Positions 6,020 to 29,525 of a DNA stretch of 64,000 nt are shown here, one piece after another. A model generated the notes under the pieces. The model was given only the letters and a program-made list of their open reading frames with translations. It was not told where the DNA came from and did not search any database. The stretch is taken from assembly GCA_963805085.1 (NCBI GenBank), contig CAWDTA010000004.1, positions 64,001-128,000 on the forward strand, written 5' to 3'. The DNA comes from an uncultured Veillonellaceae bacterium. Its GTDB lineage: Bacteria > Bacillota > Negativicutes > JARBTT01. Every line of letters begins with the position of its first letter. Positions within the stretch are counted from its first letter, which is position 1. A program made the translations under genes and the position numbers.

Positions 6020-6045
6020 AGATAGATATCCTCCTTCCGTTAATG

Positions 6046-6231: not shown

Positions 6232-6245
6232 AGTAAGTACCTCCT

Positions 6246-6785: not shown

Positions 6786-6814
6786 TGATAGGCTACCTCC
6801 TTTCGCTTCAAATT

Positions 6815-7141: not shown

Positions 7142-7158
7142 ATAGGACACCTCCTAAC

Positions 7159-7527: not shown

Positions 7528-7588
7528 TGTGTTACCTCCTTCTTGAGATTTTCCAGTTCATTTCAAAGGCGAAATAAGCGAATTTTTA

Positions 7589-7846: not shown

Positions 7847-7906
7847 GCCTGAATAGCCTCCTTCCGTTGCATATCATTTTTTAGCCGCCAAAAATATTCG
7901 CGTGAA

Positions 7907-8101
7907 TTAAGCTTTTAACTCTTGTTCACGTTGGATTGTTTTAATGCGAGCAATTGTTTTCTTTACATCTTTGATACGCATTGGGTTTTCAAGCTGGCCA
8001 GTAGCAAGTTGAAATCTGAGGTTAAATAGTTCTTCCTTTAGAGAAGCAAGTTTTTGGTTAAGTTCAACTTCATTCATATCACGTATATCATTAACCTTCA
8101 T
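7907..8101 (-). CDS. rpmC: 50S ribosomal protein L29
   Basis: [16 protein letters not shown]. Confidence 0.97.
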
Positions 8102-8552
8102 TTACTTCACCGCCCTCTGCTTGCTCTTGAGCCTGTTTTTGAGCTTGTTCACGTGTAACGAATTTTGTTTTAATAGGAAGTTTATGTGCAGCAAGACGCA
8201 TAGCTTCTTTTGCAGTTTCCTCTGTAACGCCATCCATTTCGAACATGATACGACCTGGTTTAACTACTGCTACCCAGTATTCTACTGAACCTTTACCACT
8301 ACCCATACGAGTTTCGGCAGGTTTTGCAGTTACAGGTTTATCTGGGAAAATTTTGATCCAAACTTTACCACCACGTTTGATATAACGAGTCATAGCAATA
8401 CGAGCAGCTTCAATTTGTCTATTGGTAATCCAAGCAGGTTCTAATGCTTGTAAGCCAAATTCACCATGACTTACTGTATTTCCTCTGGTTGCTTTACCTT
8501 TCATACGACCGCGGAACTGTTTGCGGTGTTTTACTCTTTTTGGTAATAACAT
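8091..8552 (-). CDS. rplP: 50S ribosomal protein L16
   Basis: RMGSGKG, IFPDKP. Confidence 0.98.
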
Positions 8553-9223
8553 TATGCTTCGCTCCCTTCGACAGCGGCAGCAACGACTTTTTTCACTTCA
8601 GGTAAAATTTCACCTTTGAAGATCCAAACTTTTACGCCGATAAGGCCGTAAGTAGTGTGAGCCTCAGCAGTACCATAGTCAATGTCAGCTCTTAAAGTAT
8701 GAAGTGGAATACTCCCTTCACGATAAGCTTCACTTCTAGCAATTTCAGCTCCGCCTAAACGACCGCCTACCATTACTTTGATACCTTTAGCACCCATACG
8801 CATTGTACGACCAACCGCTTGTTTCATAGCACGGCGGAACGCAATACGACGTTCTAATTGAGCTGCAATATTTTCAGCTACTAATGTTGAATCTAAATCT
8901 GGTTGCTTAATTTCAGCAATGTTGATATCAACATGTTTAGTAGTTAGTTTTTTCAAACCATTTTTGATTTGTTCGATTCCTGAACCACCACGACCAATAA
9001 CCATACCAGGTTTTGCAGTATGAATCGTCAATTTAAGACGATTTTGACCACGTTCAGTTTCAATTTTAGATACGCCCGCATTGCGAAGTAAAGCTTTCAA
9101 ATACGTACGCACTTTTATATCTTCATGCAAGTTGCTTGCATAGTCTTTATCTGCATACCACTTAGCATCCCACGTTTTAACAACGCCAAGGCGCAAGCCA
9201 TGTGGATTAACTTTTTGACCCAA
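8552..9223 (-). CDS. rpsC: 30S ribosomal protein S3
   Basis: [23 protein letters not shown]. Confidence 0.98.
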
Positions 9224-9239
9224 TTCGTTTCCCTCCTTT

Positions 9240-9572
9240 TTATCTTTCTTTTACAACAACCGTAACGTGACTTGAACGTTTTAAAATTTTAAACGCTTGC
9301 CCACGAGAACGTGGATGAATACGTTTCAATGTAGGCCCTTGGTCTACATATGCCGCAGCGATATAAAGATTATCAACATTCATATCAAAGTTGTGTTCAG
9401 CATTTGCTACAGCTGATTTCAAAACTTTTTCTATAACATCAGCACCAACTTTTGGTGTGAATTTTAAAATTGCAAACGCTTCTCCGATTTGTTTACCACG
9501 GATTAAATCCATAACTATACGAATTTTACGAGGAGCGACGCGAATGTATTTTGCTACTGATTTAGCTTCCAC
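9240..9572 (-). CDS. rplV: 50S ribosomal protein L22
   Basis: [15 protein letters not shown]. Confidence 0.98.
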
Positions 9573-9596
9573 AGATTAGCCTCCTTTCGGCAAAAA

Positions 9597-9878
9597 CTAC
9601 TTAAGTGATGTACGTCTTTCTTCGCCGGAATGCCCTTTGAAAGTACGAGTCGGCGCGAATTCACCAAGTTTGTGACCTACCATATCTTCAGTTACATAAA
9701 CAGGTACATGTTTACGACCGTCATGCACTGCTATAGTGTGACCAACAAAATTAGGAAGAATAGTTGAACTACGTGACCACGTTTTTATAACTTTTTTCTC
9801 ATTAGTTGCATTCATGGCGTCAATTTTTTTAAGAACGCTTTCATGAACATATGGTCCTTTTTTAATTGATCTTGACAA
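9597..9878 (-). CDS. rpsS: 30S ribosomal protein S19
   Basis: [13 protein letters not shown]. Confidence 0.98.
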
Positions 9879-9955
9879 TGATGTATCCTCCTTTCGCCAA
9901 GGCGAGGAACTTAAAATTTCAAGTTTCGCGCCTATATCTTATATCAATCTTTTAA

Positions 9956-10783
9956 TTATTTCGTACGACCTTTGACAATAAACTTGTCAGAGTTCTTTTT
10001 ACGACGAGTTGTAGCACCCATAGCATGTTTACCCCATGGAGTAACAGGATGTTTACGACCAACTGGGCTACGACCTTCACCACCACCATGTGGATGGTCA
10101 TTAGGATTCATTGTTACCCCACGATTAGCAGGACGAATACCTAACCAACGAGAACGACCAGCTTTACCAATTGTAATGTTTTCATGTTCAAGATTACCTA
10201 CTTGACCAATCGTTGCTTTACAATTGATATGAACTTTACGTAACTCACCTGAAGGCATACGAAGAAGTGCATAATCGCCCTCTTTCGCCATTAATTGAGC
10301 ACCTGTACCAGCGGAACGAACCAATTGTCCACCTTTACCGATTTTCATCTCAATATTATGAATCATAGTACCAACAGGAATATTTATAATTGGTAACGCA
10401 TTACCAGGCTTGATATCAGCTTCAGGACCAGATACAATTTTATCCCCAACTTTAATACCGTTAGGTGCTAAGATGTAACGTTTTTCACCATCAGCATAAT
10501 TTAAAAGCGCAATACGCGCTGAACGGTTCGGATCGTATTCAATTGTAGCAACAGTTGCTTGAATATCATCTTTATTCCGTTTGAAGTCAATCACACGGTA
10601 TAAACGTTTGTGACCGCCACCTTGATGTCTTACTGTTAGACGACCTAGATGATTACGACCACCATGTTTTTGTAGACGCTCAACTAGAGCTTTCTCAGGT
10701 TTGTCAGTAGTGATTTCATCGAAACTAGCTACTGTCATGAATCTTCTACCTGCAGAATATGGTTTAAAACTTTTTACTGCCAT
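9956..10783 (-). CDS. rplB: 50S ribosomal protein L2
   Basis: [17 protein letters not shown]. Confidence 0.99.
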
Positions 10784-10815
10784 TGGTTAACCTCCTTTTC
10801 CAAAAACTTAAGCTA

Positions 10816-11103
10816 TTATACACCTTCGAAGAATTCGATGCTTTCGCCAGGTGCAAGTTTAACAATAGCTTTTTTATAATCTGCGCGTTTGCCTTGACTG
10901 CGACCCATACGTTTTACTTTTCCTAACACGTTTACAGTGTTTACTACAAGAACTTTTACTTTGAATATTTCTTGAACAGCAGTTCTTATTTCAACTTTGT
11001 TAGCTGTCTTAGGAACAACAAATGTATATTTGCCTTCTTGCATCAACGCAGTTGTTCTTTCAGTGATAAGCGGACGGATTAAAATATCGCGTGCATTTGC
11101 CAT
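10816..11103 (-). CDS. rplW: 50S ribosomal protein L23
   Basis: RPLITE...YKKAIV; S10 operon order. Confidence 0.97.
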
Positions 11104-12892: not shown

Positions 12893-14084
12893 TTAAGCTT
12901 GAACTTCAGTTACAACACCAGCGCCAACAGTACGGCCACCTTCACGGATAGCGAAACGTAAACCTTCTTCAATAGCAATTGGTGTGATAAGTTCGATAGA
13001 CATTTGAATGTTATCGCCAGGCATAACCATTTCAACACCTTCTGGTAAGTTAACTACACCAGTTACATCAGTTGTACGGAAATAGAATTGTGGACGATAG
13101 TTTGTGAAGAATGGAGTATGACGTCCGCCTTCTTCTTTAGATAAAACGTAAACTTCACCTTTAAATTTAGTGTGAGGTTTAATGGAACCTGGTTTAGCAA
13201 GAACTTGACCACGTTCGATTTCTTTACGTTCAACACCACGAAGTAAAGCACCAATGTTATCACCAGCTACTGCACTATCAAGTAATTTTCGGAACATTTC
13301 AACACCAGTTACAGTAGTTGATTTAGGTTCTTCGCTCATACCAACGATTTCAACATCTTCACCAACTTTAACTTGACCACGTTCAACACGGCCAGTAGCA
13401 ACTGTACCACGACCAGTGATTGAGAAAACGTCTTCAACTGGCATCAAGAATGGTTTATCAGTTTCACGTTCTGGAGTTGGGATGTATTCATCAACAGCAT
13501 CCATTAATTCCATGATTTTTTCTTCCCATATGTAGCGTCGCCTTCAAGAGCTTTTAACAGCAGAACCAGTAATTACAGGAATATCATCACCAGGGAATTC
13601 ATAACTCAGAAAGAAGTTCACGAACTTCCATTTCTACTAATTCCAATAATTCTTCATCATCAACCATATCAGCTTTGTTTAAGAATACTACCATTCAGGC
13701 ACGCCAACTTGACGAGATAAAAGAATATGTTCACGAGTTTGTGGCATAGGGCCATCAGCAGCAGCATACTACTAAGATAGCACCATCCATTTGTGCAGCA
13801 CCAGTGATCATGTTTTTAACATAGTCAGCATGGCCTGGGCAGTCAACGTGAGCATAGTGACGTTTTTCTGTTTCATACTCAACATGAGCAGTATTGATTG
13901 TGATACCACGTTCTCTTTCTTCTGGAGCTTTATCGATCATGGCATAATCCATAAACTCAGCTCCGCCAGCTTTTGATAAAACTTTAGTGATAGCAGCTGT
14001 CAATGTAGTTTTACCATGATCAACGTGACCAATCGTACCAATGTTAACATGTGGTTTATTTCTTTCAAACTTTTGCTTTGCCAT
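12893..14084 (-). CDS. tuf: Elongation factor Tu (broken by probable sequencing indels ~13500-13770)
   Basis: N-fragment [18 protein letters not shown]-fragment ending [10 protein letters not shown]. Confidence 0.95.
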
Positions 14085-14105
14085 TGTTAATAAATCCTCC
14101 TTACT

Positions 14106-16196
14106 TTAATTAACGCCTTTGATTTTTAGCTGATAATGCTTCTGCATATATTTTTAGGAACTTCTTCATAATGATGAAATTCCATGGAATAATTACCACG
14201 TCCTTGTGTTTTAGAACGCAAGTCTGTAGCATAACCAAACATTTCAGAAAGTGGAACGAAGGCATTAATTACTTGTGCACCACCACGAGCTTCCATGCCT
14301 TCAATACGTCCACGTCTAGAGTTAAGATCACCAATAACATCACCCATGTATTCTTCCGGAACAACAACTTCAACTTTCATGTATGGTTCTAAGAATACTG
14401 GACTTGCTTTTGCAGTACCTGCTTTAAAGCCCATAGAACCAGCAATTTTAAACGCCATTTCAGATGAATCGACATCATGGTAAGAACCATCATACAACAA
14501 TAACTTTAATATCAACTATTGGATAACCAGCAACAACGCCATTTTCCATAGCTTCTTTAATACCAGCTTCAATGGGTTAATATATTCTCTAGGAATCGCA
14601 CCACCGACTACTTTATTTTCAAAAGTAAAGCCTTGACCTGGCTTCTTGAGGGTTCAAGTTCAAGCCAAACAGTGACCATATTGACCACGACCACCAGATT
14701 GACGAACGAATTTACCTTCTGCTTTAACTTGTTTACGGATTGTTTCACGATAAGCAACTTGAGGCTTACCTACATTAGCAATCAACTTTAAATTCACGAA
14801 GCATACGGTCAACGATAATTTCCAAATGAAGTTCACCCATACCAGCAATGATACGTTTGACCAGTTTCTTGGTCAGTATGTCATACGGAATGTAGGATCT
14901 TCTTCTGCAAGTCTTGCAAGGGCAATACCCATTTTTTCTTGGTCAGCTTTTGTTTTTGGCTCAACAGCAACCGAAATAACTGGTTCTGGGAATTCCATGG
15001 ATTCAAGAATAATAGATTCTTTTTCATCACAAAGAGTATCACCAGTAGTTGTATCTTTCAAGCCAACTGCAGCTGCGATATCACCAGCTGTAAACCATTT
15101 CGATTTCTTCACGGCGATTTGCATGCATTTGAAGAATACGACCAATACGTTCTCTTTTACCTTTTGTTGAGTTATATACATAAGAACCAGAAGTAAGTGT
15201 ACCAGAATATACACGGAAGAATGCTAATTTACCAACATAAGGGTCAGCCATAATTTTAAAAGCCAACGCTGAGAATGGTATTTTATCATCCGCTTCACGT
15301 TTATCTTCTTCACCAGTATCTGGATTTGTACCTTTAATAGCTGGAATATCAAGTGGTGAAGGCATGTAATCAATTACTGCATCGAGCATTGGTTGAACAC
15401 CTTTATTTTTATAAGAAGAACCACAGAAAACAGGAGTCATTTTGCAATCAATTGTTGCTTTACGAATCGCTGCTTTTAATTCTTCTTCAGAAATTTCTTC
15501 GCCTTCAAGATATTTCATCATCAATTCTTCATCAGATTCAGCAACTGTATCTAAAAGAATTTGACGATATTCATCAGCTTTTTCTTTCATATCTGCAGGA
15601 ATTTCAACTTCTTCGCTAGTTTTACCAAGATCATCTGTATAGATAATCGCGTCCATTTTGATTAAGTCAACCATTCCTAAAAATGTATCTTCAGAACCAA
15701 TTGGCAGTTGAAGTGCAACCGGATTTGCATTTAAACGAGTTTTTAACATGTCAACAACTCTATAGAAATCCGCACCCAAGATATCCATTTTATTAACAAA
15801 CGCCATACGAGGTACATTGTATTTATCAGCTTGGCGCCATACTGTTTCAGATTGTGGTTCAACTCCACCTTTAGCACAGAACACAGCAACCGCGCCATCA
15901 AGCACTCTCAATGAACGTTCTACTTCAACAGTAAAGTCCACGTGACCTGGTGTGTCAATGATGTTAATGCGATGACCTGCCCATTGACAAGTTGTAGCAG
16001 CAGAAGTAATAGTAATACCTCTTTCTTGTTCTTGCTCCATCCAGTCCATAGTAGCAGCACCTTCATGAACTTCACCAATCTTATGCACTTTACCTGTATA
16101 AAACAGAATGCGTTCAGTAGTAGTGGTTTTACCAGCATCAATATGTGCCATGATACCTATATTTCGTGTCTTTTCGAGAGGAAACTGTCTACCCAC
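14106..16196 (-). CDS. fusA: Elongation factor G (multiple probable sequencing indels in 3' half)
   Basis: [37 protein letters not shown] spread over fragment ORFs; stop approximate. Confidence 0.95.
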
Positions 16197-18049: not shown

Positions 18050-19075
18050 TTAATACATACCAAAACTAGCTACATATGCAATCAATACCGCAAGTGGACC
18101 TGTAATTACACGTGAATATAATACAGCTGGAACCCCAAGTTCTATCGTTTCTGGATCTGCTTCTCCTAAACTAAGCCCTACTGGTACGAAGTCACCACCT
18201 ACTTGGGCATTGATTGCAAACAATGCCGGCAACGCATATTGCGCTGGGATATGCCCTAATCCTATTTCCACACCTAAAAGTGTACCTACAACCTGTGCAA
18301 TTACTGCGCCTGGTCCAATAACTGGTGAAATAAATGGCAATGAGCATACTACCGAAATGACTAGCATCCCTGGTAAGGTGCTTGCTAATGGCGAAATTGT
18401 ATTCGCTATTACATCTCCAATTCCTGATGCACTGATAATACCGATTAGCATACTTACAAACGCCATGAATGGTAAAATAGTTTTTACTACCATATCTATC
18501 GTTTCGCGCCCAGCTTGGTAGAATTTATTTACCACTCCACCAACACCAATCCCTAATTTGGTTATAAAATTCTTTTCTTTTCCAGCATTCATCTTTGCAA
18601 GTTCCGCTCTTGCTTGTGCTTTTGTTTTTGGTGCACCTGATACTGGTTCACTAGCGGAGCTTGCACTGCCTGCTGCACTACCATCTTTTGCTGTCAATGG
18701 AGTTCCTTCTGAAGCATACGTAATTGTTTCTACAGTTACTGCCGATACATATAATGATTCAGTAATATATTGCGCCAATGGTCCAACATTACCAACTGGT
18801 GTTAAATTTACAGTAAAGATATTTTTTTTCGGATATACACCACATCTAGCTGTACCACCACAATCGACAACTGCTACCAAAGTTTCTGTATCTGGTACTG
18901 CTGAACTAAATCCATCAATTGCTTCACAGCCTGTCATCTCTGCAATTTTTGCTGCTACTGGATGAATTCCCCCACCAGTAACGCTAATGATTTTATTACA
19001 AGTTTCTGTTGGTTGAATCGTCAAAGGTCCACCCCAACCACCTTTACCCTTAGATATTGTAATTGCCTTATACAT
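18050..19075 (-). CDS. srlE: PTS glucitol/sorbitol-family EIIBC (SrlE-like)
   Basis: [22 protein letters not shown] (phospho-Cys), GPGAVIAQV. Confidence 0.88.
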
Positions 19076-19116
19076 AAATTACTCAATCCTTTCTGTATAC
19101 AAATTTTAATTTATTT

Positions 19117-19638
19117 CTAATTTTCTTCTTTAGATTTCATGTAGGCATAAATTTTTTCTGTTACAACACCACGAATGAAGATAACGACTACCCCAACTAA
19201 GAAATAACGTACTGCTAGATCACCAAGTGGTAATCCAAGCGTCGTAATTCCCGCTGCGATCCCCATGTATACGAAAAGTTCGCCACCATTTGCATGTGGG
19301 AATAATCCTGTGATTGGATGTACAAAACTAACCGCTGCATCATAAAAAGCTGGTTTATGTTTCGCTTTTACAAACCTACCAAAACTATAACACATTGGAT
19401 TTCCTAAGAATAACACCGCTAGCACTGGCAACACTGTATATCTCGTAATAATATTTTGTGTTGCTTGTTGCGCTAATTTGTTCACCCGATCTTCACCAAT
19501 TAATTTAATAACAGAACTCACAGCGGTCATTAAAACCACAATTAAAGGAATAATTCCTGCCACCCAACTTGCAAAAGTACCTGCACCTGCTTTAAAGACA
19601 TCCATAAATCCATTGGCTAAACCTGCAATAAATTCCAT
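19117..19638 (-). CDS. srlA: PTS glucitol/sorbitol-family EIIC (SrlA-like)
   Basis: NPMCYSFGRF, HPITGLFPHANGGELFVY. Confidence 0.88.
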   Translation of the reverse strand: MEFIAGLANGFMDVFKAGAGTFASWVAGIIPLIVVLMTAVSSVIKLIGEDRVNKLAQQATQNIITRYTVLPVLAVLFLGNPMCYSFGRFVKAKHKPAFYDAAVSFVHPITGLFPHANGGELFVYMGIAAGITTLGLPLGDLAVRYFLVGVVVIFIRGVVTEKIYAYMKSKEEN

Positions 19639-19922
19639 AATGATTTTACCTCCCTAATTTTTTCAAAAAATTATCGGCGATACTTACCGTGCTTTAATGT
19701 GTATATTTTACTGTTTATTTGTTTTAGAATATTCTGATATTATTATTTCGTAAAAAGATGCTATATTTTTTTATAAAAGCATGAATTTTATAGAGAATTT
19801 TCTAAATCTTTGTGTTAAGACTAGCGGCTTCTTATATACTCTATTTTGGGCAATATAAGAAGCCCTCAGCCCCTGAAATGAATTCACATAAAAAGTGAAT
19901 TTTTACCCTAGAAAAAATTTTT

Positions 19923-20438
19923 TTATTCACCCATGACAACAATTTTACATTGTCTATCTCTTGGACGATTTGGATCCCAATCAATAAAGTAGTAATAACC
20001 TGTAACTTGATTAATTTGCAATACACCATTTTCAATAGCACTTGTTACACTTTCTCCTACAAGAGATGCTTTGATATGAGCTTCTGTATTTAATAAAGAT
20101 CTTCTGTCTGGTACCAATGCTGAGTCGCAATCTTTTTCACCAAAAGCAACATGTTCAGGCCCTGGATGATAATATTGACATTCTGTCAAACATCTTGGAA
20201 CAATTTTTTCTAAAACATTATTAAAATCAACCTGCAAATACTCATCACCACAATAATTTGTATCATGAGAATATTCTTCATAGATTACCGAACACGTTGT
20301 ATGTGGTGTTGTGATTACGCAAATACCATTTTTCACTTTACTTTTTTCAATAGCTACTCTGACTTCTTTTGTAATTTCATGATAAGATGCTCGGTTTCCA
20401 TTAGATCTCACTACAAGGTTTTCAATATATACTGTCAT
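19923..20438 (-). CDS. YjbQ/UPF0047-family protein
   Basis: EITKEV..GICVITTPHTTCS, AHIKASLVG, YFIDWD..RPR. Confidence 0.8.
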   Translation of the reverse strand: MTVYIENLVVRSNGNRASYHEITKEVRVAIEKSKVKNGICVITTPHTTCSVIYEEYSHDTNYCGDEYLQVDFNNVLEKIVPRCLTECQYYHPGPEHVAFGEKDCDSALVPDRRSLLNTEAHIKASLVGESVTSAIENGVLQINQVTGYYYFIDWDPNRPRDRQCKIVVMGE

Positions 20439-20439
20439 C

Positions 20440-21135
20440 TCATTTTCTCCCATCTTTTTTCGTTTTTTCGATCGCTGCAATCATGTCTTTTACCATTTCT
20501 TTTGGATCTTCAGCACACACAATACCACTTGTACAACCTGTTCCATCTGCCCCTGCCATAATTGTACGGTATACATCATCCGCTGTACTAATGCCTGCTG
20601 CTTGCATAACCAAAATATTTGGATTTATTTTTTTGATGCTGTCAGTTGTTTGTTTGATATAGGCTTGATCACTCGTGTTGCCTGTACCAATAAGTTCAGT
20701 CGGTTCACATAGAATAATATCAGGATCTAGTAAAGCAATTGCTTTTGCCTCTTTGACGGAATCAGCACATACAACTGTATACATTCCCACTTCTTTAGCT
20801 CTTTCAATAATTTTTACTAAATCTACTAAATTTAAAGGATGTTCGGCATGATTTAGAAATACAGCTTTTGCACCAGCTTGTTTTAACGCTTCTGGTACTA
20901 CATATCCCATGCCGCGTCCAGCTTTTAGTGCGTCCATATGCTGTGCTGTTACGATAAGATTTTTTGTGTTTTCTGCAATCAACCTAATATCCGTAAAGGG
21001 TGCTGTAAAAAACACATCAAACTCCTTGCTTTCTGCCCATTTATCAGCTTCAAGTGCCAATTCTAATGATTTCTTTCCATAGAGATATGATTTTGGATTT
21101 ACCATAAAAAATGGTGTTCTTATTTTCTCCCCCAT
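20440..21135 (-). CDS. Archaeal-type (short) triose-phosphate isomerase family protein
   Basis: NPKSY, LNHAEH, CEPTELIGTG, AAGIS; 231 aa. Confidence 0.85.
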   Translation of the reverse strand: MGEKIRTPFFMVNPKSYLYGKKSLELALEADKWAESKEFDVFFTAPFTDIRLIAENTKNLIVTAQHMDALKAGRGMGYVVPEALKQAGAKAVFLNHAEHPLNLVDLVKIIERAKEVGMYTVVCADSVKEAKAIALLDPDIILCEPTELIGTGNTSDQAYIKQTTDSIKKINPNILVMQAAGISTADDVYRTIMAGADGTGCTSGIVCAEDPKEMVKDMIAAIEKTKKDGRK

Positions 21136-21146
21136 ATTTTTACCTC

Positions 21147-22007
21147 CTATTTTTTATATTTAACTGTTTCAAATACTTGATAATAATGGTTCAAACAAGC
21201 TTTCATGCCTTGTTTCGCTTGTGCTATTACTTCATAATAATTTTCTGCTGTTTCTATAGACATTTTATCTTTAGCAGCAATAACGAAATCTGTATATATA
21301 TTAATTTTGGCAATTCCACTCGTTGCACATCTATTTAAATTGGCATCACCTGAAGATGAGCCACCATGCAATACAAGTGGTGTATCCATACTTGCTGCAA
21401 TTTCCTCTAACCTTTTAAAATTAATAACCGGAGTACCTTTATATGTGCCATGTGCTGTTCCAATAGATATTGCCAATGAATCAACATTCGTTTGTTTGCA
21501 CATTTCCACCGCTTCTTCTACTGAGGTGTAAATTGAATCATCATTCTGCCCATAACCACCGCCTTCACCAACACTACCGACAAGGACTCCCGTACCAACA
21601 TGTCCGATTTCAGCTTCTACTACTACACCTTTTGCATGTGCATACTCCACAATTTCTTTGGTAATCGCAATATTTTTTTCTAACACTTCTTGAGAAGCAT
21701 CAATCATAACCGATGTAAACCCTAAATCAATTGCTCGCTTTACTACTACTAAAGATGTACCATGATCTAAGTGTAATACCACAGGAACGTCTACTTTTCC
21801 CCCATAAAATTTACCGAGTAAGGCTGCTTCTTCTAAAGATAAATAAGCTTTATGCACCTCAGCATAACTTAAGATAATAGGCAATTTCATTTCATTGGCA
21901 ACCTCCGTATGTGCCATTACAGAAGTCCAATCAAAGAAATTAGCGGATGGTATTGCTAACTTTTGTTGTTTTGCTTTTTGCAAAAGTTCTTTTGATGTAA
22001 CTAACAT
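21147..22007 (-). CDS. Class II (Zn) ketose-phosphate aldolase, FBA/TBA family
   Basis: LHLDHG, SVMIDAS, EAEIG, IGTAHG, LVLHGGS, KINIYT. Confidence 0.9.
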   Translation of the reverse strand: MLVTSKELLQKAKQQKLAIPSANFFDWTSVMAHTEVANEMKLPIILSYAEVHKAYLSLEEAALLGKFYGGKVDVPVVLHLDHGTSLVVVKRAIDLGFTSVMIDASQEVLEKNIAITKEIVEYAHAKGVVVEAEIGHVGTGVLVGSVGEGGGYGQNDDSIYTSVEEAVEMCKQTNVDSLAISIGTAHGTYKGTPVINFKRLEEIAASMDTPLVLHGGSSSGDANLNRCATSGIAKINIYTDFVIAAKDKMSIETAENYYEVIAQAKQGMKACLNHYYQVFETVKYKK

Positions 22008-22105
22008 AGTCTCACTCCTTTCAGTTATGTTTTCTGAATATTCAGATTTATATTACACTATGTTGACCAAACTCTAGGAGGACCAGCGCTACTGAATAAA
22101 TTATT

Positions 22106-23401
22106 TTATTTGCCGTACATTTTATCTTGTTCTTGACGCAATTTGTAGATAAGCGTGGAAGTATCAAGTTGAATCATATCTTTGGTAATCAGTTGACCTT
22201 TTTTCGCATCTTTCAACATTTTTGCGTTTCTATTTACTAAACCATACGGTACATAGCCTTTAGCATCTGATTCTGCTGATGTTGCGATGGAACCATACGT
22301 TGTGAAACCACCAATACCATCAATTGTTTGACCGGCTTTTAAATCAGTTTTTGCTACTGTGATACATTCACTTACAAGACCATCCATTGGTACAATTGTA
22401 GTTTCACCATCAATTACAGCCTTTGCTACGGTTAATGGCGTTTCAAGGTTACATAAATGATATGGACGATATAAAATCCATAATGGACCATTTCCCATAC
22501 TATGATATCTCATTTGGTATGCAATTTCTTCATTTTCAGTAGACACAGCAACGAATACACCAGGTGCAATACCATTTACATATTCAACAACGCCATGTTT
22601 GCTTAACATACCACCATCTTGCTTCAATCTTAACAGGTCAGCTAAACCTTTTACGTCAGATACGATGCCATGACCACCGATTACATCTGGAACTAAACCT
22701 GTAGCATTAGACATCGCAGTCATTTCTACCATTGTTTTGGTACCATCTTTAAAGGAGCAAAGCATTTTAGGACTCATTTTACGGCGAGTTGCTTCTTCTA
22801 ATACAGAATCTGGATTGCAATCATAATCAAGTTTGTTATTTTTCCCCTTACCCATTACTTTTACATCCATCCCCATTGCTTTTGCAAAACAATATAATTC
22901 CATTACCGCACCTGGTTCGTCACCAGCAGAACCTGTATAAATAACGCCTTGTTCCTGCGCTAATTTTTTGAGGTAAGGTCCAATAACTACGTCTGTTTCT
23001 ACATTTAACATGACACAATGTTTACCATTTTTCATTGCATCAGTTGCTACTTTTGCTCCTACATCAGGTACACCAGTTGCATCAATAGCACATTCTACTA
23101 AATTTACTTGTGATACTAAATTTGCATCTGTTGTTGCTATAAATTTACCCATTTCCATCATTTTATTCGCATCAGCAAGAGTATTGACAATTGCAATTTG
23201 ATCATCTGTAATACCAGCATAGTTAAAGGCATGTATAGCATTTTCAATCGCAATATCAGATACAATTGCCGGTGTAATACCTTGCATTAATGCCATTTGT
23301 GTTACCATACCTCTACCCATTTGTCCTGCACCAACGATACCTGTGCGGATAATTTTTCCTTCTTGTTGACGTTTGATCAATTTTTGATTCATGTTTAACA
23401 T
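22106..23401 (-). CDS. NAD(P)-dependent oxidoreductase with C-terminal SAF domain (COG4091-like)
   Basis: GIVGAGQMG Rossmann, MLNVETD, AGDEPG, GKGKNN, DGTKTMVEM, YRPYHL, AKTDLKAGQTIDGIGG. Confidence 0.85.
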   Translation of the reverse strand: MLNMNQKLIKRQQEGKIIRTGIVGAGQMGRGMVTQMALMQGITPAIVSDIAIENAIHAFNYAGITDDQIAIVNTLADANKMMEMGKFIATTDANLVSQVNLVECAIDATGVPDVGAKVATDAMKNGKHCVMLNVETDVVIGPYLKKLAQEQGVIYTGSAGDEPGAVMELYCFAKAMGMDVKVMGKGKNNKLDYDCNPDSVLEEATRRKMSPKMLCSFKDGTKTMVEMTAMSNATGLVPDVIGGHGIVSDVKGLADLLRLKQDGGMLSKHGVVEYVNGIAPGVFVAVSTENEEIAYQMRYHSMGNGPLWILYRPYHLCNLETPLTVAKAVIDGETTIVPMDGLVSECITVAKTDLKAGQTIDGIGGFTTYGSIATSAESDAKGYVPYGLVNRNAKMLKDAKKGQLITKDMIQLDTSTLIYKLRQEQDKMYGK

Positions 23402-23430
23402 ATAAATCACTCCTACTATTCATTTTTTAT

Positions 23431-23799
23431 TTAAAATATTTCTATAGTACCACCTTTAACTAAATCTTGCGATGTAAATGCATCGCCTTCTAGCATAATG
23501 CATCCTGGTCTTTCTGGTTCATCCCCCCCCTTAAAAGACAAAGTACAGTGACCAAGTTCTTTTAATGTATGCAATGCTTCGTCACCAATCGCTGTAATTG
23601 TAAACACCTTGTCACAAAGAATCAATGTATCTGACACTTTGATATCAGCTAAAATTGGAGATACTCTATGCAAAACTGAAATTTCAGCCAACTCTGGCGG
23701 TGCTGTTTCATTAAAGATGATAATAAAGTTTAAGTCCTTATCATCTAATAATGCTGTTACTTCTTCACCCCACCCAGTAATTTCAGCATTATATTTCAT
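23431..23799 (-). CDS. srlB: PTS glucitol/sorbitol-family EIIA (SrlB-like)
   Basis: IIFNETAPPELAEISVLH, TLKELGHCTL..PGCI. Confidence 0.88.
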   Translation of the reverse strand: MKYNAEITGWGEEVTALLDDKDLNFIIIFNETAPPELAEISVLHRVSPILADIKVSDTLILCDKVFTITAIGDEALHTLKELGHCTLSFKGGDEPERPGCIMLEGDAFTSQDLVKGGTIEIF

Positions 23800-23885
23800 C
23801 GAATCGCCTCCTTTGATAGATTTTTAATCATTTCATATGATAAAACTTACACCTGCTTTAAAAACACCTATAAGTTTTTACCTCA

Positions 23886-24275
23886 CTAAGTTTCTATTGA
23901 ATTCAAACGCATATCCAAAGCATTAATCGCTTGAATATGAGCTTGGTAAATCTTTTGTTTCTTTTCAGGTAGAGCCATATATTCTGCTTTTAAAGCATAA
24001 ATGTTTTTTCCAGCAATATCTTTAAGTTCTCTAAAACCATTAAATATTGTAAAACCTTCCATAACTTCGCCCCCTGTAATTTTCCCTTGATTATCACAGG
24101 CAATGACCACAATATTACCAGGTCTCAATTTTGACTTTCTACTGCCAATGCCCACATTCCCCATTTTATGCAACCTTCGCACAGCTTTTTTATACTGCTT
24201 GACTTGAAGATATGTCCCACTAGCTTGAATTGCCATAAAAACCAACAAAACTGCAATCAATGTTGTAAAATCCAT
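23886..24275 (-). CDS. gutM: GutM/SrlM-family activator
   Basis: N-terminal TM, Q..Y..L..G.VGIG, MEGFTIFNGF; adjacent to srlB. Confidence 0.75.
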   Translation of the reverse strand: MDFTTLIAVLLVFMAIQASGTYLQVKQYKKAVRRLHKMGNVGIGSRKSKLRPGNIVVIACDNQGKITGGEVMEGFTIFNGFRELKDIAGKNIYALKAEYMALPEKKQKIYQAHIQAINALDMRLNSIET

Positions 24276-24289
24276 ATAAATACTCTCCT

Positions 24290-25255
24290 TTACATTTCTA
24301 ATAGTACTTTGGCACAATCAACATCGGTAATTAAAATATTCAAGAATTCTCCTTTTATCGCGCCATACACAGCTTTTGCTTTTTGTGCGCCACCAGCAAT
24401 TCCAATTCTTTGTGGTACTTTCTTTAATTGATCAATTGGCATTCCTGCAACTCGTTCATTAAATTCTCTGAATTTTTCAACTTTTCCAAATTCATTGAAA
24501 AATTGGAGTGATATATCACCAACAGCCCCCAATTTAACAAACTCTTCTAAGATATTTTCATCTACATAGCCAGTATGCATCAAAGTTGAACCTGTTCTAT
24601 CCGGTACACCAATCCCCATAATAACCGTATTTATTTTTCGAAATATTTTAAAAATACTTTTTACTGACTTTTCCATCATAAACCCATTTAGAACATCAAC
24701 ATTAGAGAACACTGCTGGAGCAAAAAATTGTATGCAATCACCGCCAAACATTTTAGCCAATTCCATCGCAATGTAATTCGAGTGAATATCTGCTCTACTT
24801 TCGCCAATACCACCAACAATTGGTACAAAAGTACATTTAATTGGCTCTTTAATACGCTCTTGCATTCTCGTAAGATTTTGTAAAGTCATTCCCATTGTGA
24901 CACCAACGTACTCGCCATCTTCCAGTAACTTTTCTAAAAAGTCAATAGATTCTTCAATCAGTTTACTGCTTGTCCATTCATTTCCAGTTGTAATTGTACT
25001 CGAATCAGCAACAATCACTTCCTTTAAATTGAATTTCTTTTCCAATTCGCGTTCTATTTTACCAAATGTAACACCATAAGGACTTTTAATTTCAATTTTC
25101 ACAATGCCTTGTTCTTTTCCCATTTTTATCATCCGCGAAACAGATGGCCTTGATATTCCCAGCGAATCACAAATCTCTTGTTGGCTTAAACCATCTTCAT
25201 AATATAAACTACAACACTTAAATATCGTTCTTGTATCATCAATAATCTTTTTCAT
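24290..25255 (-). CDS. SorC/DeoR-family sugar-binding transcriptional regulator
   Basis: LYYEDGLSQQEI..LGISRPSVSR HTH; GAVGDI, IAGGAQKAKAV, LITD. Confidence 0.9.
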   Translation of the reverse strand: MKKIIDDTRTIFKCCSLYYEDGLSQQEICDSLGISRPSVSRMIKMGKEQGIVKIEIKSPYGVTFGKIERELEKKFNLKEVIVADSSTITTGNEWTSSKLIEESIDFLEKLLEDGEYVGVTMGMTLQNLTRMQERIKEPIKCTFVPIVGGIGESRADIHSNYIAMELAKMFGGDCIQFFAPAVFSNVDVLNGFMMEKSVKSIFKIFRKINTVIMGIGVPDRTGSTLMHTGYVDENILEEFVKLGAVGDISLQFFNEFGKVEKFREFNERVAGMPIDQLKKVPQRIGIAGGAQKAKAVYGAIKGEFLNILITDVDCAKVLLEM

Positions 25256-25304
25256 TGAAAAACCTCCGATACAGAGTAAGTAACTCATTTGGTTTATAAT
25301 TAGT

Positions 25305-25333
25305 ATTATATCGACATATTATTATGTTTTCAA
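25305..25333 (-). promoter_or_regulatory. SigA promoter of PTS cluster regulator
   Basis: TTGAAA-17 nt-TATAAT about 50 nt upstream of start. Confidence 0.65.
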
Positions 25334-25443: not shown

Positions 25444-25482
25444 AAGATGACGGTTCATATTTACGCTATGAACCGTCATCTT
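25444..25482 (-). terminator. Rho-independent terminator after araD
   Basis: AAGATGACGGTTCATA/TATGAACCGTCATCTT stem with T-run on minus strand. Confidence 0.85.
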
Positions 25483-25568: not shown

Positions 25569-26261
25569 TTATGCTTGCCCGTAGTAGGCATTTTTGCCAT
25601 GTTTTCTTAAATAATGCTTATCCAAAAGTACTTGTTGCATCTGTTGAGTAACTCCATTATTCAAGAGTTTAGAGTGCAAGGCCATAAAGGCAACTTCTTC
25701 TAGCACTACAGCATTATGGACGGCATTGAATGCATCTTTCCCCCAAGAGAACGGACCATGTGAATGCACCAAAACCCCCGGAATATCATTAAAATTTTTA
25801 TTTTGAAATGTTTCAATGATAACTTTGCCAGTTTCTTTTTCATATTCCCCATTAATTTCCGCGTCCGTCATAGGACGAGTACAAGGAATATTCCCATAAA
25901 AATAATCTGCATGTGTTGTTCCTAGTGCTGGAATGTCAAGACTTGCTTGCGCCCATACCGTCGCATAACGCGAATGGGTATGGACAATTCCACCAATGTC
26001 TGCGCTAGCTTTATATAGTTCGATGTGAGTTGCTGTATCAGACGATGGTTTTAGTTTACCTTCCACTACATTGCCTGCAAGGTCTACAACTACCATGTCA
26101 GTAGCTTTCATCTCACTATATTCTACCCCAGATGGTTTGATGACAACCAGCTTAGACGCATGGTCAATTGCTGAAACATTGCCCCAAGTAAAAGTAATTA
26201 ACTTGTATTGTGGTAACATCATATTAGCCTGATACACGGATTCTTTTAATCCTTCTAACAT
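25569..26261 (-). CDS. araD: L-ribulose-5-phosphate 4-epimerase
   Basis: [34 protein letters not shown]. Confidence 0.96.
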
Positions 26262-26328
26262 ATTTTATCTACCCCACCATCATTTATGGTAGCAAAAGAA
26301 CTCTGCTACCACAAGTATTTTTAATAAC

Positions 26329-27810
26329 TTATTTTAATTTCCAAGCAATATCGGCGATTAATAAATCTTGTTTGAAACGATGAAGGTCAATATCTTCTGC
26401 AATATGAACAAACTCAATATCCATCATATTCGCCCAATCTCTAAGTTCATTTGCTGTAAGACTAAAGCTAATGACACTATGATGTGCGCCTCCAGCAGTA
26501 ATCCAAGCTTCAGCTGAAGTTTCAAGATTTGGAAGTGGCTTCCACATTACACGTGCTACTGGTAGATTTGGCATTTCCATAATTGGTTTCACTGCCAATA
26601 CATCATTCACAATCAGACGTAACCTTCCCCCCATATCAATAAGTGACGCACAAATTGCTTTACCACTTGCCCCTTCAAACACCAGCCTTGCGGGATCATC
26701 TTTGCCACCAATACCGAGTGGATGAACTTCTATGCTTGGTTTTGTTGCAGCAACCGTAGGACATATTTCAAGCATATGAGAACCTAAAATCAAACTTTCT
26801 TCCCCAGCAAAATGGTATGTATAATCTTCCATAAGCGAGGTACCACCATCAAGCCCCTGCGCCATTGTCTTCATTACACTAGTCATGGCAGCTACCTTCC
26901 AGTCACCTTCAGGACCAAAGCCATAGCCTTTTTCCATCAATCTTTGCGATGCAAGTCCTGGAAGCTGTTTCATGCCATTTAAATCTTCAAAGGTATTAAC
27001 AAAAGCATCAAAGCCACCTTTTTTCAAGAACGTTTCCATCCCAATTTCAAGTTTTGCCTGATAGCGCACGGATTCAATATTATCTGTTTTTATTGTATAT
27101 GCTTGTTCATATTCTTTTACTATAGCATCAATCTCAGCTTCGCTGACAGCATCAATATATGCTAATAAATCACCAACTGGATAGGTATTCACTGACCAGC
27201 CTAGTTTGATTTGTGCTTCTACTTTGTCGCCTTCTGTTACCGCTACATCCCGCATGTTATCACCAAAACGGGCAACTTTTAACTTTTTGCTTGTCATGAC
27301 ACCAATGGCACTACGCATCCATAAACCAATTTTTTCTTTTATATGTTTGTCTTCCCAATAGCCCACAATAACTTTACGTGGTAAACGCATTCTCGTACCG
27401 ATAAAGCCGTGTTCACGATCTCCATGGGCAGCTTGGTTCAGATTCATAAAGTCCATATCAATCTCTTCATTAGGAATTTCACGATTGAATTGCGTGTGTA
27501 AATGCAAATAAGGTTTTTGTAATTTGCTTAAGCCGCGGATCCACATCTTTGATGGAGAAAAGGTATGCATCCAAGTAATAATACCAGCGCAATTTTTATC
27601 AAAATTTACTTCTTCCATAATATTTTCAATTGCTTCTGAGTTTGTTGCCACGATTTTAAAAATAATTTCTACTGGAAGCTCTTGGGCTTGATTTAGCTTT
27701 TCAACCATAATTTTAGAATGCTCTGCAACTTTTTTCAGTGTTTCTTCACCATAAAGATGTTGGCTGCCTGTAATAAACCAAAATTGACATGTTTTCAAAT
27801 CCTTCATCAT
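26329..27810 (-). CDS. araA: L-arabinose isomerase
   Basis: TGSQHLYG, WMHTFSP, NLNQAAHGDRE, MEDYTY, HMLE. Confidence 0.97.
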   Translation of the reverse strand: MMKDLKTCQFWFITGSQHLYGEETLKKVAEHSKIMVEKLNQAQELPVEIIFKIVATNSEAIENIMEEVNFDKNCAGIITWMHTFSPSKMWIRGLSKLQKPYLHLHTQFNREIPNEEIDMDFMNLNQAAHGDREHGFIGTRMRLPRKVIVGYWEDKHIKEKIGLWMRSAIGVMTSKKLKVARFGDNMRDVAVTEGDKVEAQIKLGWSVNTYPVGDLLAYIDAVSEAEIDAIVKEYEQAYTIKTDNIESVRYQAKLEIGMETFLKKGGFDAFVNTFEDLNGMKQLPGLASQRLMEKGYGFGPEGDWKVAAMTSVMKTMAQGLDGGTSLMEDYTYHFAGEESLILGSHMLEICPTVAATKPSIEVHPLGIGGKDDPARLVFEGASGKAICASLIDMGGRLRLIVNDVLAVKPIMEMPNLPVARVMWKPLPNLETSAEAWITAGGAHHSVISFSLTANELRDWANMMDIEFVHIAEDIDLHRFKQDLLIADIAWKLK

Positions 27811-27854
27811 AAAACCCCCTAAATTTTTTATTTATAAAAATATTAAAATCTATT

Positions 27855-29525
27855 TTATTTAGCAGCTTCTTTTTTAATTTGTTTAAGGCGTTTCATTACG
27901 TCATTATCGCCTCTTCCAAAGTAATCATGAAGCTTATCATATTCTGCGTAAAGTCGATCATACACTACAACATGCTCAGGGATTGGTTGGTACACAATAT
28001 CTTTCAAATTCCCCATTTTTTTCGTTGCATTAAAAATATCATCATAACCGCCTTCTGCTTTGCCCGCAGCAACAGCTGCAAAGATTGCTGAACCAAGTGC
28101 TGGTCCTTGCATTGAGCCAGCAATTTTCACTGGGATATTGCAAATATCTGCATAGATTTGCATTGCCATCGGGTTTTTCTGTGAGATACCACCCGATGCA
28201 TAGAACTCGTCAACTGGCACCCCGCTATCCCGAAATGTTTCAATAATCTTTCTTGTCCCATATGCAGTAGCTTCAATCAACGCACGATAAATTTCTTCTG
28301 GCTTTGATTGTAAGGTAAGCCCTATAATCATGCCCGTCAAATCAACATCAACCAAAACCGACCGATTGCCATTCCACCAGTCAAGTGCTACAAGCCCACT
28401 CTCACCAACGGCAAGCTTACTCGCTTTTTCTGTCAGGTATTGATGTGCACTTATATTTTTCTGTTTTGCAGCTTCGCTATAGCTTTCTGGTAAACAATTA
28501 TTTACAAACCAAGCAAAATGATCGCCAACACAAGATTGACCAGCTTCATAGCCATAGAAACCAGGTAAAACACCATCTTCTACAACCCCACACATCCCTG
28601 GAACAATTTTTTCTTGATCGCCAAGTAAAATATGACAAGTAGATGTTCCCATGATTCCAAGTATTTTTGCTGCACTATCAATTTTTACCGCTGGAATTGT
28701 CACGTGCGCATCTACGTTTCCAACTGCTACTGCTGTGCCGACTTTAAGTCCTGTAAGTTTGGCAGTTTCCGCTGTAATCGAGCCAGCTTTTTGCCCCAAT
28801 GGTGTGATTGGACAATTTAATTTATCTTCTACAACATTCTCTAATCTTGGATCTAAAGCCTTAAAAAATTCTTTTGATGGATATCCATCTGTCTTATGCC
28901 AAATTTCCTTGTATCCAGCTGTACAGGAATTTCTCGTTTGTACACCACACAGCTGCCAGATCACCCAATCTGCTGCCTCAATGAAATAATCCATTTTTTC
29001 ATAAACTTCAGGTGCCTCATCAAGAATCTGCCATAACTTTGGAATTGCCCACTCTGATGAAATTTTCCCTCCATATCGCGCTAACCATTTTTCACCACGT
29101 TCTTCTGCAATTCTATTGAGTTCATTTGCTTTATCTTGGGCAGCGTGATGCTTCCAAAGTTTGATATATGCGTGTGGATTAGACTGATATTCAGCTAGGA
29201 AACATAATGGGGTACCATCCTTTAACACTGGCAATACTGTACAGGCAGTAAAATCAGTACCAATTCCGATAATATCCTCTGGGGAAACCCCAGTTATTTT
29301 AATTAACTCTGGTATGGTGTGCGCAAATACATCCAAATAATCTTGGGGATGTTGCAAGGCCCAATCAACACCTAATGTAGTCCCATCTGGCAAAGATTTG
29401 TCCATTACTGCATGTGGATAGTCATATACACTGCTCATAATTTCTTCACCAGTATTTACCTCCACCAAGACTGCTCTGCCTGAAAGGGTCCCAAAGTCAA
29501 CACCAATCGTATATTTTTTCATCAT
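27855..29525 (-). CDS. araB: Ribulokinase (FGGY)
   Basis: [35 protein letters not shown]. Confidence 0.96.

Follow-up and report, generated by a model that had tools for sequence, protein, structure and literature searches.

A glucitol-type phosphotransferase operon built around a DXR-II homologue, and a candidate pathway for 2-C-methyl-D-erythritol catabolism

What substrate is served by a glucitol-family (Gut) phosphotransferase system (PTS) whose operon encodes neither the sorbitol-6-phosphate dehydrogenase SrlD nor a kinase? The question is raised by a cluster in a 64,000-nucleotide stretch of DNA from an uncultured Veillonellaceae bacterium, which we call the window. Nine intact genes, all on the minus strand between positions 18050 and 25288, match family profiles for a SorC regulator, GutM, enzyme IIA (EIIA), an oxidoreductase, a class II aldolase, an archaeal-type triosephosphate isomerase (TIM), YjbQ, EIIC and EIIBC, in this order. 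The initial annotation of the window had listed the genes in the same order and had noted that SrlD and kinases were missing; the nine families were recovered with strong matches, and there is indeed no short-chain dehydrogenase/reductase (SDR) or kinase among them. We put forward, as a possibility that falls a little short of probable, that the cluster is a second, non-sorbitol Gut-PTS operon organised around an enzyme of the DRL family, and that it degrades 2-C-methyl-D-erythritol (ME), through MEP (2-C-methyl-D-erythritol 4-phosphate) and DXP (1-deoxy-D-xylulose 5-phosphate), to dihydroxyacetone phosphate (DHAP) and acetaldehyde.

A DXR-II homologue in a second Gut-type operon

The oxidoreductase of the cluster (22106-23410, minus strand, 434 amino acids) had been taken for an uncharacterised COG4091 protein, and this identification has to be replaced. 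Pfam assigns it a single domain, PF21135, which is the "oxidoreductase DRL" catalytic domain (214.3 bits for a cut-off of 27), and in a phmmer search of the PDB its residues 5-433 align with residues 8-437 of the Brucella abortus DRL structures 3UPL and 3UPY (E = 2e-102). The available portion of PMC3847144 describes a clade of 53 sequences of type II DXP reductoisomerases (DXR-II), 11 of which complement a DXR-deficient E. coli mutant, alongside two inactive clades of the same superfamily, DLO1 and DLO2. The same portion names Lys191, Lys193 and Thr229 as anchors of fosmidomycin and Glu174, Phe178, Arg320 and Tyr322 as dimer contacts, and all seven are identical in the window protein when read by position in the phmmer alignment. 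Gly121, Thr229, His250 and Val351, given there as the residues that set DXR-II apart from DLO1 and DLO2, are likewise all conserved in this alignment to Brucella DRL. By every criterion applied, namely the alignment to Brucella DRL and the named residues, the oxidoreductase is predicted to be a DXR-II. The family has members with demonstrated DXP-to-MEP activity, and this membership speaks against the ketose-1-phosphate that the enzyme had been thought to make: a DRL should not form such a compound directly. Public databases give these proteins only generic names. The genome also encodes a classical DXR (TIGR00243, 502.9 bits) in the canonical cdsA-dxr-rseP context, so the DRL is not needed for isoprenoid synthesis in this bacterium.

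Sorbitol has its own operon in the same genome. Contig C2 carries a canonical SorC-SrlD-GutM-EIIC-EIIBC-EIIA operon (832401-836895; positions 4401-8895 of locus L080), whose SrlD passes the sorbitol-6-phosphate dehydrogenase equivalog NF009050 (411.5 bits for a cut-off of 307) and whose PTS components outscore those of the window on the sorbitol models. The absence of SrlD is thus a property of the cluster and not of the genome. The two sets of PTS components are only 32-52% identical (46% for EIIC and 52% for EIIBC). Because a separate canonical srlD operon is present, the window cluster is most likely a paralogous, non-canonical Gut-PTS system with a substrate other than sorbitol, as had been suspected at first, and for the same reason we rejected, as the main reading, a plain sorbitol operon with a non-orthologous SrlD. 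The C2 operon adjoins noc/parB-like and parA-like genes.

A conserved core and a detachable trio

The initial annotation had made its proposal depend on the cluster occurring elsewhere, and it does: the same nine-gene order is found in Propionispira raffinosivorans and P. arboris, the closest named genomes (loci L001 and L002), with 87-96% protein identity. Beyond Propionispira, the nine genes are better described as two modules than as a single fixed unit, one formed by the PTS and DRL and the other by the aldolase, TIM-like and YjbQ genes, which we call the trio. We analysed 79 loci with the closest DRL relatives from named genomes (73-96% identical), spread over Negativicutes, Lachnospiraceae, Butyricicoccus, Breznakia, the pasteurellacean Conservatibacter and the spirochaete Brachyspira. 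Gut-PTS genes lie at most 6 kb from DRL in 72 of these loci, and in 67 of them the EIIA gene is found upstream of DRL at a distance of less than 700 nt. Of the seven loci without nearby Gut-PTS genes, six lack any PTS match, being short or truncated or having only SorC beside DRL. When loci had at least 8 kb on both sides of DRL, the PTS was present in every case (31/31), and a TIM-like or YjbQ gene was also present in 17. More distant DRLs (45-50% identical) from two Bacilli genomes are again paired with EIIA, and there EIIC and EIIBC are transcribed divergently. The association of Gut-PTS and DRL is a conserved core across several phyla. This genome-neighbourhood comparison, of the kind called for at the outset, bears out the linkage, but not a fixed attachment of the trio to DRL.

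A tree of 102 DRL sequences (FastTree) mostly follows taxonomy. In it, the cores of Conservatibacter flavescens (L014) and Brachyspira catarrhinii (L036) nest inside Negativicutes clades at 75-79% identity; finding gammaproteobacterial and spirochaete cores in this position indicates that the PTS and DRL module moved horizontally across phyla. Five Anaerostipes-like loci (L013, L142, L152, L156 and L158) have two Gut-PTS and DRL sets in tandem, in which the DRL copies are separated by branches of zero length and the PTS sets have diverged. Virtually identical DRL copies beside diverged PTS sets suggest that DRL alone was recently duplicated or underwent gene conversion. We considered that DRL might have split into subfamilies specialised by genetic context, and rejected it, since tandem copies with and without the trio are virtually identical in the tree and there is no signal of sub-specialisation.

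The core also shows some unusual arrangements. IspD is encoded beside the cluster or DRL in three lineages, with examples in Dorea-like loci, in Selenomonas GACV-9, and in the genomes G393, G443 and G465. In G393 (L095, 8445-17264) and G443 (L096/L097), which are small Bacilli, dxs is present without a classical dxr and DRL is the only DXR. The order in these genomes is IspD, EIIA-DRL, and then, divergently, ORF-EIIC-EIIBC-LipL-like-SorC-E3-E1alpha-E1beta-E2-LipB-LipA, so that the E1, E2 and E3 genes of a lipoate-dependent, pyruvate/acetoin-type complex are interleaved with those of the PTS, SorC and DRL. In locus L086 (G031, contig C33, 9812-16078), genes for GntR and for Gut-type EIIC, EIIBC and EIIA come first, and those for a Zn-dependent alcohol dehydrogenase, a class II aldolase and a TIM-like protein follow; DRL and YjbQ are missing, and the position of DRL is taken by the medium-chain dehydrogenase.

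The aldolase of the window (21147-22007, minus strand; PF01116, 268.7 bits) belongs to the fructose-bisphosphate aldolase (FBA) family and passes only the subfamily model TIGR00167 (222.4 for a cut-off of 215.6). It reaches none of the equivalogs for bisphosphate substrates, with 220.5 against 343 for FBA and 189.4 against 443.6 for tagatose-bisphosphate aldolase. Alignments to solved FBAs show that the LDH, GTAHG and LHGG motifs of the class II fold are kept; we take these to be the metal-binding and catalytic motifs. The alignments cover the protein up to about residue 247-256 of 286 and end before the C-terminal region, presumably the one that holds the distal-phosphate arginine. YdjI is among the PDB matches of the protein. 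In locus L083, the place beside the TIM-like and YjbQ genes is occupied by a FucA/AraD-type aldolase (PF00596) instead of the PF01116 enzyme, and this protein reached no NCBIfam equivalog cut-off. The known substrates of PF00596 aldolases are ketose-1-monophosphates, and the swap between the two families suggests that the window aldolase probably cleaves a ketose-1-monophosphate to DHAP and a free aldehyde, a prediction on which our analysis and the initial annotation agree. The genome holds an unusually large set of eleven class II (PF01116-type) aldolase paralogues, 31-40% identical to the window copy, which suggests many ketose-phosphate pathways.

The TIM-like protein (20440-21135, minus strand; NF003302, 193.9 bits for a cut-off of 132) is encoded by the sole archaeal-type copy in the genome. 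It matches Pyrococcus woesei TIM (1HG3, E = 2e-44) and conserves the NPK, LNHAE and EPTELIGTG motifs and the phosphate loops, which we assume to contain the active-site Lys, His and Glu and the sites that bind phosphate. It is thus predicted to be an isomerase, and its distribution does not look like that of a housekeeping gene, because it is restricted to DRL-bearing genomes in Negativicutes and occurs elsewhere in clusters of polyol or tetrulose type. YjbQ/UPF0047 (19923-20480, minus strand, with a likely start at 20438; PF01894, 79.2 bits for a cut-off of 27) is a neighbour of the TIM-like protein in most loci where one of the two is encoded. It scores 61.5 with TIGR00149, just under the cut-off of 67.75, has an insertion relative to the solved members, which are about 140 amino acids long, and shares the PHTT and AHIKASL motifs with the YjbQ structures 1XBF and 1VMH, which are of unknown function. 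According to the part of PMC3010111 at hand, E. coli with a pdxB deletion is rescued when its yjbQ is overexpressed, by a route whose inferred product is 2-oxo-3-hydroxy-4-phosphobutanoate. This compound is relevant here because it has the -CO-CHOH-CH2OP motif expected of the substrates discussed below.

The three genes of the trio travel together, in variable order and orientation. Among 301 sampled Negativicutes genomes, 34 encode DRL and 17 the TIM-like protein; all 17 are DRL-positive, and none of the 267 DRL-negative genomes has a TIM-like gene. Several genomes with DRL have the trio at a great distance from it, as a separate operon that includes a SorC- or GntR-type regulator. Pectinatus haikarae has the genes at two loci, DRL and the aldolase being in the PTS cluster and TIM-YjbQ elsewhere, and in P. 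cerevisiiphilus the cluster lacks the aldolase and no TIM-like gene was found in the genome. The restriction of the trio to DRL genomes, which holds in Negativicutes (17/17), fails in Lachnospiraceae, where 7 of the 8 TIM-like genomes have no DRL.

The Lachnospiraceae reveal other partners of the trio. In the genome G723, one closely packed operon (L099) encodes a PRD regulator, galactitol-type (Gat) EIIA, EIIB and EIIC, a small membrane protein, the aldolase, YjbQ, the TIM-like protein, classical DXR-I and transaldolase. The small ORF between EIIC and the aldolase (177 amino acids), which has no Pfam match at E up to 1e-6, is read from its sequence as a small two-helix membrane protein. The DXR-I inside this operon is the only classical dxr of G723. 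In contrast, dxr has canonical neighbours in four other Lachnospiraceae genomes and in that of the window, with a peptidase M50 gene downstream in all five and a gene of the CDP-diglyceride synthase family upstream in four. In locus L102, a Gat-type PTS precedes the trio, after which come a regulator and an iron alcohol dehydrogenase. Two further contexts are of another kind: in L100 (G818, 5676-10711) the TIM-like gene accompanies a Dak1/Dak2 kinase, RpiB and a lyxose-isomerase-like protein, and in L105 (G768, 600-11041) an FGGY kinase, an AraA-like protein, DUF4380, DUF4432, a GlpABC-like flavoprotein dehydrogenase and two YjbQ genes. These layouts resemble erythrulose and erythritol pathways, with YjbQ where RpiB would be expected.

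To these loci we added 80 metagenome loci related to the TIM-like gene of G723. The Gat-PTS/trio cluster is present in about 25 of them, with no dehydrogenase between PTS and trio, and in about 30 further loci Gut-PTS and DRL are followed by closely related trio genes, whose TIM-like proteins are 82-91% identical to that of G723 and whose aldolases are 86-88% identical in most cases and 39-44% in some. A dxr gene follows the TIM-like gene only in five loci identical to G723 (L111-L115). The idea that classical DXR replaces DRL as a general rule was therefore discarded: it concerns one species, and about 20 related Gat-PTS/trio loci are without dxr. Evidently, the same trio is supplied by two alternative feeders, Gut-PTS with DRL and a Gat-type PTS without dehydrogenase. 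If so, the substrate of the trio must be both the product of a PTS and the product of DRL. The simplest compound that fits this constraint is DXP, formed either from ME through MEP and DRL or from 1-deoxy-D-xylulose taken up by the Gat-type PTS.

A predicted route from 2-C-methyl-D-erythritol, and its rivals

In the pathway that we propose, ME would be taken up by the Gut-PTS as MEP, which DRL, working backwards, would convert to DXP (CH3-CO-CHOH-CHOH-CH2OP). YjbQ would then catalyse a first carbonyl shift, to CH3-CHOH-CO-CHOH-CH2OP, and the TIM-like enzyme a second one, to CH3-CHOH-CHOH-CO-CH2OP, a 5-deoxy-pentulose-1-phosphate, so that the carbonyl would have moved from C2 to C4, beside CH2OP. 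The interconversion of R-CO-CHOH-CH2OP and R-CHOH-CO-CH2OP assigned to the TIM-like protein would be exactly the reaction of TIM, except that the carbonyl carbon bears a substituent. The class II aldolase would finally cleave the 5-deoxy-pentulose-1-phosphate to DHAP and acetaldehyde. SorC and GutM would regulate the operon, PTS and DRL would be its core, and the trio a detachable downstream module. In the two Bacilli genomes with the acetoin/pyruvate-type complex, DXP, which resembles acetoin, could be split by this complex into acetyl-CoA and glyceraldehyde 3-phosphate. The only transport precedent documented is that of Salmonella, whose sorbitol PTS is said to transport ME, to judge from the title of the report by Testa and colleagues in 2004. 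Of the initial interpretation, this scheme keeps a conserved, non-canonical Gut-PTS system that is likely not for sorbitol, and gives up the identity of the oxidoreductase and the position of the TIM-like and YjbQ enzymes. The latter had been placed after the aldolase, acting on its products, and are more likely to act before it as carbonyl-shifting isomerases.

Several observations weigh against this pathway. The DXR equilibrium favours MEP, and the proposed role of YjbQ as an isomerase is putative. No TIM-like gene was found, with the query used, in 17 of the 34 DRL-positive Negativicutes genomes, nor was one found in Breznakia, Conservatibacter, Brachyspira, Butyricicoccus, a Pelosinus metagenome-assembled genome, Selenomonas GACV-9 or P. 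cerevisiiphilus. In DRL genomes without the trio, DXP would be a catabolic dead end, unlike erythrose-4-phosphate or xylulose-5-phosphate. Conversely, the 251 sampled Lachnospiraceae genomes include 8 with the TIM-like gene, 7 of which lack DRL. The dxr gene beside the trio in G723 is the sole, hence housekeeping, copy of that genome, and the arrangement is known from one species only. About 13 loci (L001, L002, L004, L005, L010, L011, L021, L022, L025, L026, L028, L030 and L056) have an ordinary transketolase or transaldolase gene after DRL or after the cluster, which points to an entry into the pentose-phosphate pathway. As DRL is the sole DXR of G393 and G443, its IspD and pyruvate dehydrogenase-type neighbours may be biosynthetic or housekeeping genes. 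Finally, Table 1 of PMC10491768 gives P. arboris DSM 2179, the carrier of the cluster at L002, as erythritol-positive, a phenotype that fits erythritol catabolism equally.

Erythritol is accordingly the substrate of the strongest rival explanation, which we regard as unlikely without dismissing it. The PTS would produce D-erythritol-4-phosphate, which is MEP less its methyl group, and DRL would oxidise the C1 alcohol to give D-erythrose-4-phosphate, which enters the pentose-phosphate pathway. The trio would then be accessory, making sedoheptulose bisphosphate from erythrose-4-phosphate and DHAP, or it would be the equivalent of Brucella EryC, EryH and EryI acting on tetrulose phosphates. PTS and DRL alone would be a complete pathway, in agreement with the many genomes without the trio, and the transketolase and transaldolase genes beside DRL or the cluster in 13 loci would be natural neighbours. 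The TIM-like gene itself occurs in erythritol- or erythrulose-like clusters, with an FGGY kinase and a GlpABC-like dehydrogenase or with a Dak kinase and RpiB. The chemistry of DXR also counts for this explanation: in its second half-reaction, the aldehyde to be reduced is erythrose-4-phosphate plus one methyl group. Moreover, the accessible text of PMC12542623 mentions an erythritol-4-phosphate dehydrogenase activity of lactic acid bacteria for which no gene has been assigned. Growth of P. arboris on erythritol is less telling than it seems, since PMC10491768 lists sorbitol, D-arabitol, dulcitol and mannitol as positive for P. arboris too, so that its phenotype does not discriminate. More importantly, the window protein keeps the full DXR-II signature, and the 11 clade members that, in the available part of PMC3847144, complement DXR-deficient E. 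coli must be able to carry out the rearrangement step. Erythritol would also leave the trio without an obvious job, despite its being embedded in the cluster and bound to DRL in Negativicutes; the swap for a FucA/AraD-type aldolase fits the synthesis of a bisphosphate poorly; and the Gat-PTS feeder is poorly explained. Our searches of open-licence PMC papers and bioRxiv yielded no Gut-family PTS for erythritol. ME and erythritol need not be mutually exclusive: tandem DRLs that serve different PTS sets are essentially identical, and both substrates may well be used.

Somewhat less likely again is that DRL is a generic, or differently specialised, polyol-phosphate dehydrogenase for another substrate, such as D-apiitol, a pentitol (for example xylitol or arabitol), or sorbitol metabolised along a different route. 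D-apiitol is the hydroxymethyl analogue of ME, and the same oxidation-plus-rearrangement chemistry would give xylulose-5-phosphate and would make the core self-sufficient. A pentulose-5-phosphate product would fit the transketolase and transaldolase neighbours, the two or three tandem Gut-PTS and DRL sets of several Anaerostipes-like genomes suggest several substrates, and the generic database names of the proteins are compatible with such a role. Nevertheless, the tandem DRLs are essentially identical and hence not specialised by substrate, the substrate-anchoring residues are those of the DXP/MEP enzyme, sorbitol is already served by the canonical operon of the genome, and the use of apiitol or pentitols had no backing in any of our analyses.

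Very unlikely, finally, is an anabolic salvage in which the PTS scavenges ME (as MEP) or deoxyxylulose (as DXP) for the synthesis of isoprenoids, thiamine or pyridoxal, DRL links the two pools and the trio genes are passengers: the IspD neighbours in the three lineages named above, the presence of dxs where DRL is the sole DXR (G393 and G443) and the rescue by ME through a sorbitol PTS, reportedly the setting of the Salmonella work, speak for it, but the window genome encodes a DXR-I of its own, with ispD ~40 kb away from the cluster, the use of ME for isoprenoids would need no DRL, a full PTS with two regulators in up to three copies per genome exceeds a flux on the scale of vitamins, and the trio co-varies with DRL in Negativicutes, being kept even when split over two loci.

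Setting of the locus and comparison with known systems

The remaining genes of the cluster are those of the regulators and the PTS, all on the minus strand. The SorC/DeoR-type sugar-binding regulator (24290-25288; PF04198, 197.7 bits) probably starts at the ATG at 25255; it is below every equivalog cut-off, and its orthologues accompany the PTS and DRL core in most loci. The GutM-family operon activator (23886-24317; PF06923, 87.1 bits) scores 55.2 with the model of E. coli GutM, whose cut-off is 148. EIIA (23431-23799; PF03829, 101.5 bits) is also far from its NCBIfam equivalog (62.9 for a cut-off of 165). EIIC (19117-19638; PF03608, 255.7 bits) and EIIBC (18050-19075; PF03612, 235.6 bits, and PF07663, 152.1 bits) pass theirs, with 240.2 against 150 and 484.9 against 400, respectively. 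The spacer between YjbQ and EIIC (19639-19922, 285 nt) is AT-rich, is without a terminator-like site and may contain an internal promoter or regulatory site. An Rfam search of the cluster, including this spacer, returned no riboswitch or known RNA at E up to 0.1.

Upstream, the boundary of the cluster is a terminator-like hairpin (25444-25482, minus strand) with a 16-pair stem followed by a T run, which closes a complete araB-araA-araD L-arabinose operon (25569-29525, minus strand) whose three products pass their NCBIfam equivalog cut-offs. A promoter-like site lies 5' of the SorC gene (25305-25333, minus strand; TTGAAA, a 17-nt spacer and TATAAT), where 11 of 12 positions match the consensus; this is a consensus match only, and such sites are no commoner in the region than in shuffled versions of it. 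The nearest kinase gene, araB (29525-27855), is part of the arabinose operon, which the terminator-like and promoter-like sites in between set apart from the cluster. Downstream are an L7Ae-like gene, rpsL, rpsG and fusA. Close relatives have other neighbours: no araD, araA or araB match was found in the 8 kb upstream of the SorC gene of P. arboris or in the 3.2 kb shown for P. raffinosivorans, and a transketolase gene follows EIIBC in both, so that the neighbourhood of the cluster differs among them.

Further downstream (12893-16196, minus strand), both fusA (EF-G) and tuf (EF-Tu) are broken up into several reading frames, with EF-G domains in separate ORFs (16196-15081, 15214-14873 and 14515-14126) and a fragment of the EF-Tu GTPase at 14084-13755. 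Indels introduced by the assembly seem a better account of this than true pseudogenes, also because the genome (4.21 Mb) has a completeness of 83% in only five contigs. The window contains no Ns, and the nine cluster genes are intact.

Each part of the cluster comes from a known family, and the whole is a variation on the PTS operons for polyols. What appears to be new is the systematic linkage of DXR-II with Gut-PTS, the proposed use of DXR in reverse, and the likewise proposed degradation of DXP with the help of YjbQ and an archaeal-type TIM. In open-licence PMC papers and bioRxiv preprints, supplements excluded, we found no description of the set of DXR-like protein, PTS and aldolase, of ME catabolism or of such a role of YjbQ, in line with the suggestion of the initial annotation that this gene set may encode an undescribed pathway. 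The available part of PMC3847144 treats DXR-II as a redundant or alternative biosynthetic enzyme of patchy distribution, without an ecological explanation, and reports it in genomes that already have DXR and in two without other genes of the MEP or mevalonate pathways; the terms "PTS", "sorbitol" and "phosphotransferase" are absent from that part. The linkage found here (72 of 79 loci) offers a testable explanation, namely that DXR-II belongs to a catabolic or salvage module for polyols.

If ME catabolism is confirmed, DXR-II would acquire a primary physiological role, and its patchy and redundant distribution would be explained. YjbQ/UPF0047 would receive its first real function, and the archaeal-type TIMs of bacteria a function as well. 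The pathway would be the first degradative route for intermediates of the MEP pathway, with a bearing on the recycling of those shed by plants and microbes, and ME would be a new carbon source for abundant anaerobes of the gut and rumen, such as Anaerostipes, Dorea, Selenomonadaceae and Megamonas. That bacteria of gut, rumen and plant tissue catabolise ME by this previously unrecognised combination of Gut-PTS, reverse DXR-II, YjbQ, TIM and aldolase is a suggestion that we make with a shade more caution than that for the cluster itself. It would also matter for the interpretation of fosmidomycin sensitivity in organisms with both types of DXR. If the substrate is erythritol instead, the analysis would have named a gene for the erythritol-4-phosphate/erythrose-4-phosphate dehydrogenase step, which is unassigned in lactic acid bacteria as far as the text of PMC12542623 at hand goes.

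Two known systems share components with the cluster. Canonical srl/gut operons have the same Gut-family EIIC, EIIBC and EIIA and also GutM; they encode the SDR enzyme SrlD where the window cluster has DRL, the aldolase, the TIM-like protein and YjbQ instead. The DXR-II/DRL of Brucella shares with the window protein full-length homology, PF21135 and all the residues named in the available part of PMC3847144. What differs is the setting: the gene of the window lies inside a PTS operon for a sugar alcohol, in a genome that already has DXR-I, and the direction proposed for its reaction is reversed.

The last step of the proposed pathway has counterparts among deoxy-sugar routes. FucA, RhaD, the 5-deoxyribulose-1-phosphate aldolase DrdA, and the PF01116 members YdjI and IolJ are ketose-1-phosphate aldolases of such routes. 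The proposed step, in which a deoxy-ketose-1-phosphate would be cleaved to DHAP and a short aldehyde, is a reaction of the same kind; the window protein differs from these aldolases in being below all equivalog cut-offs, and its substrate is a prediction.

The closest parallel for the isomerisations is the erythritol pathway of Brucella. As attributed to Barbier et al. (2014), it comprises the kinase EryA, the dehydrogenase EryB, EryC, TpiA2/EryH and RpiB/EryI, and leads to erythrose-4-phosphate, with EryH (TIM family) and EryI (RpiB) shifting the carbonyl along tetrulose-4-phosphate. A profile search found none of its distinctive enzymes in the window cluster, that is, no FGGY erythritol kinase, GlpD-like dehydrogenase, EryC, bacterial-type TpiA2 or RpiB. 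Uptake is by PTS and not by way of an FGGY kinase, the dehydrogenase is DRL and not a GlpD-like flavoenzyme, the TIM is of archaeal and not bacterial type, YjbQ is found in the place of RpiB, and an aldolase is added. The logic of the two systems would nonetheless be the same: a polyol phosphate is oxidised, and a TIM-family enzyme and further isomerases then act on a C4-phosphate skeleton, by carbonyl shifts beside CH2OP.

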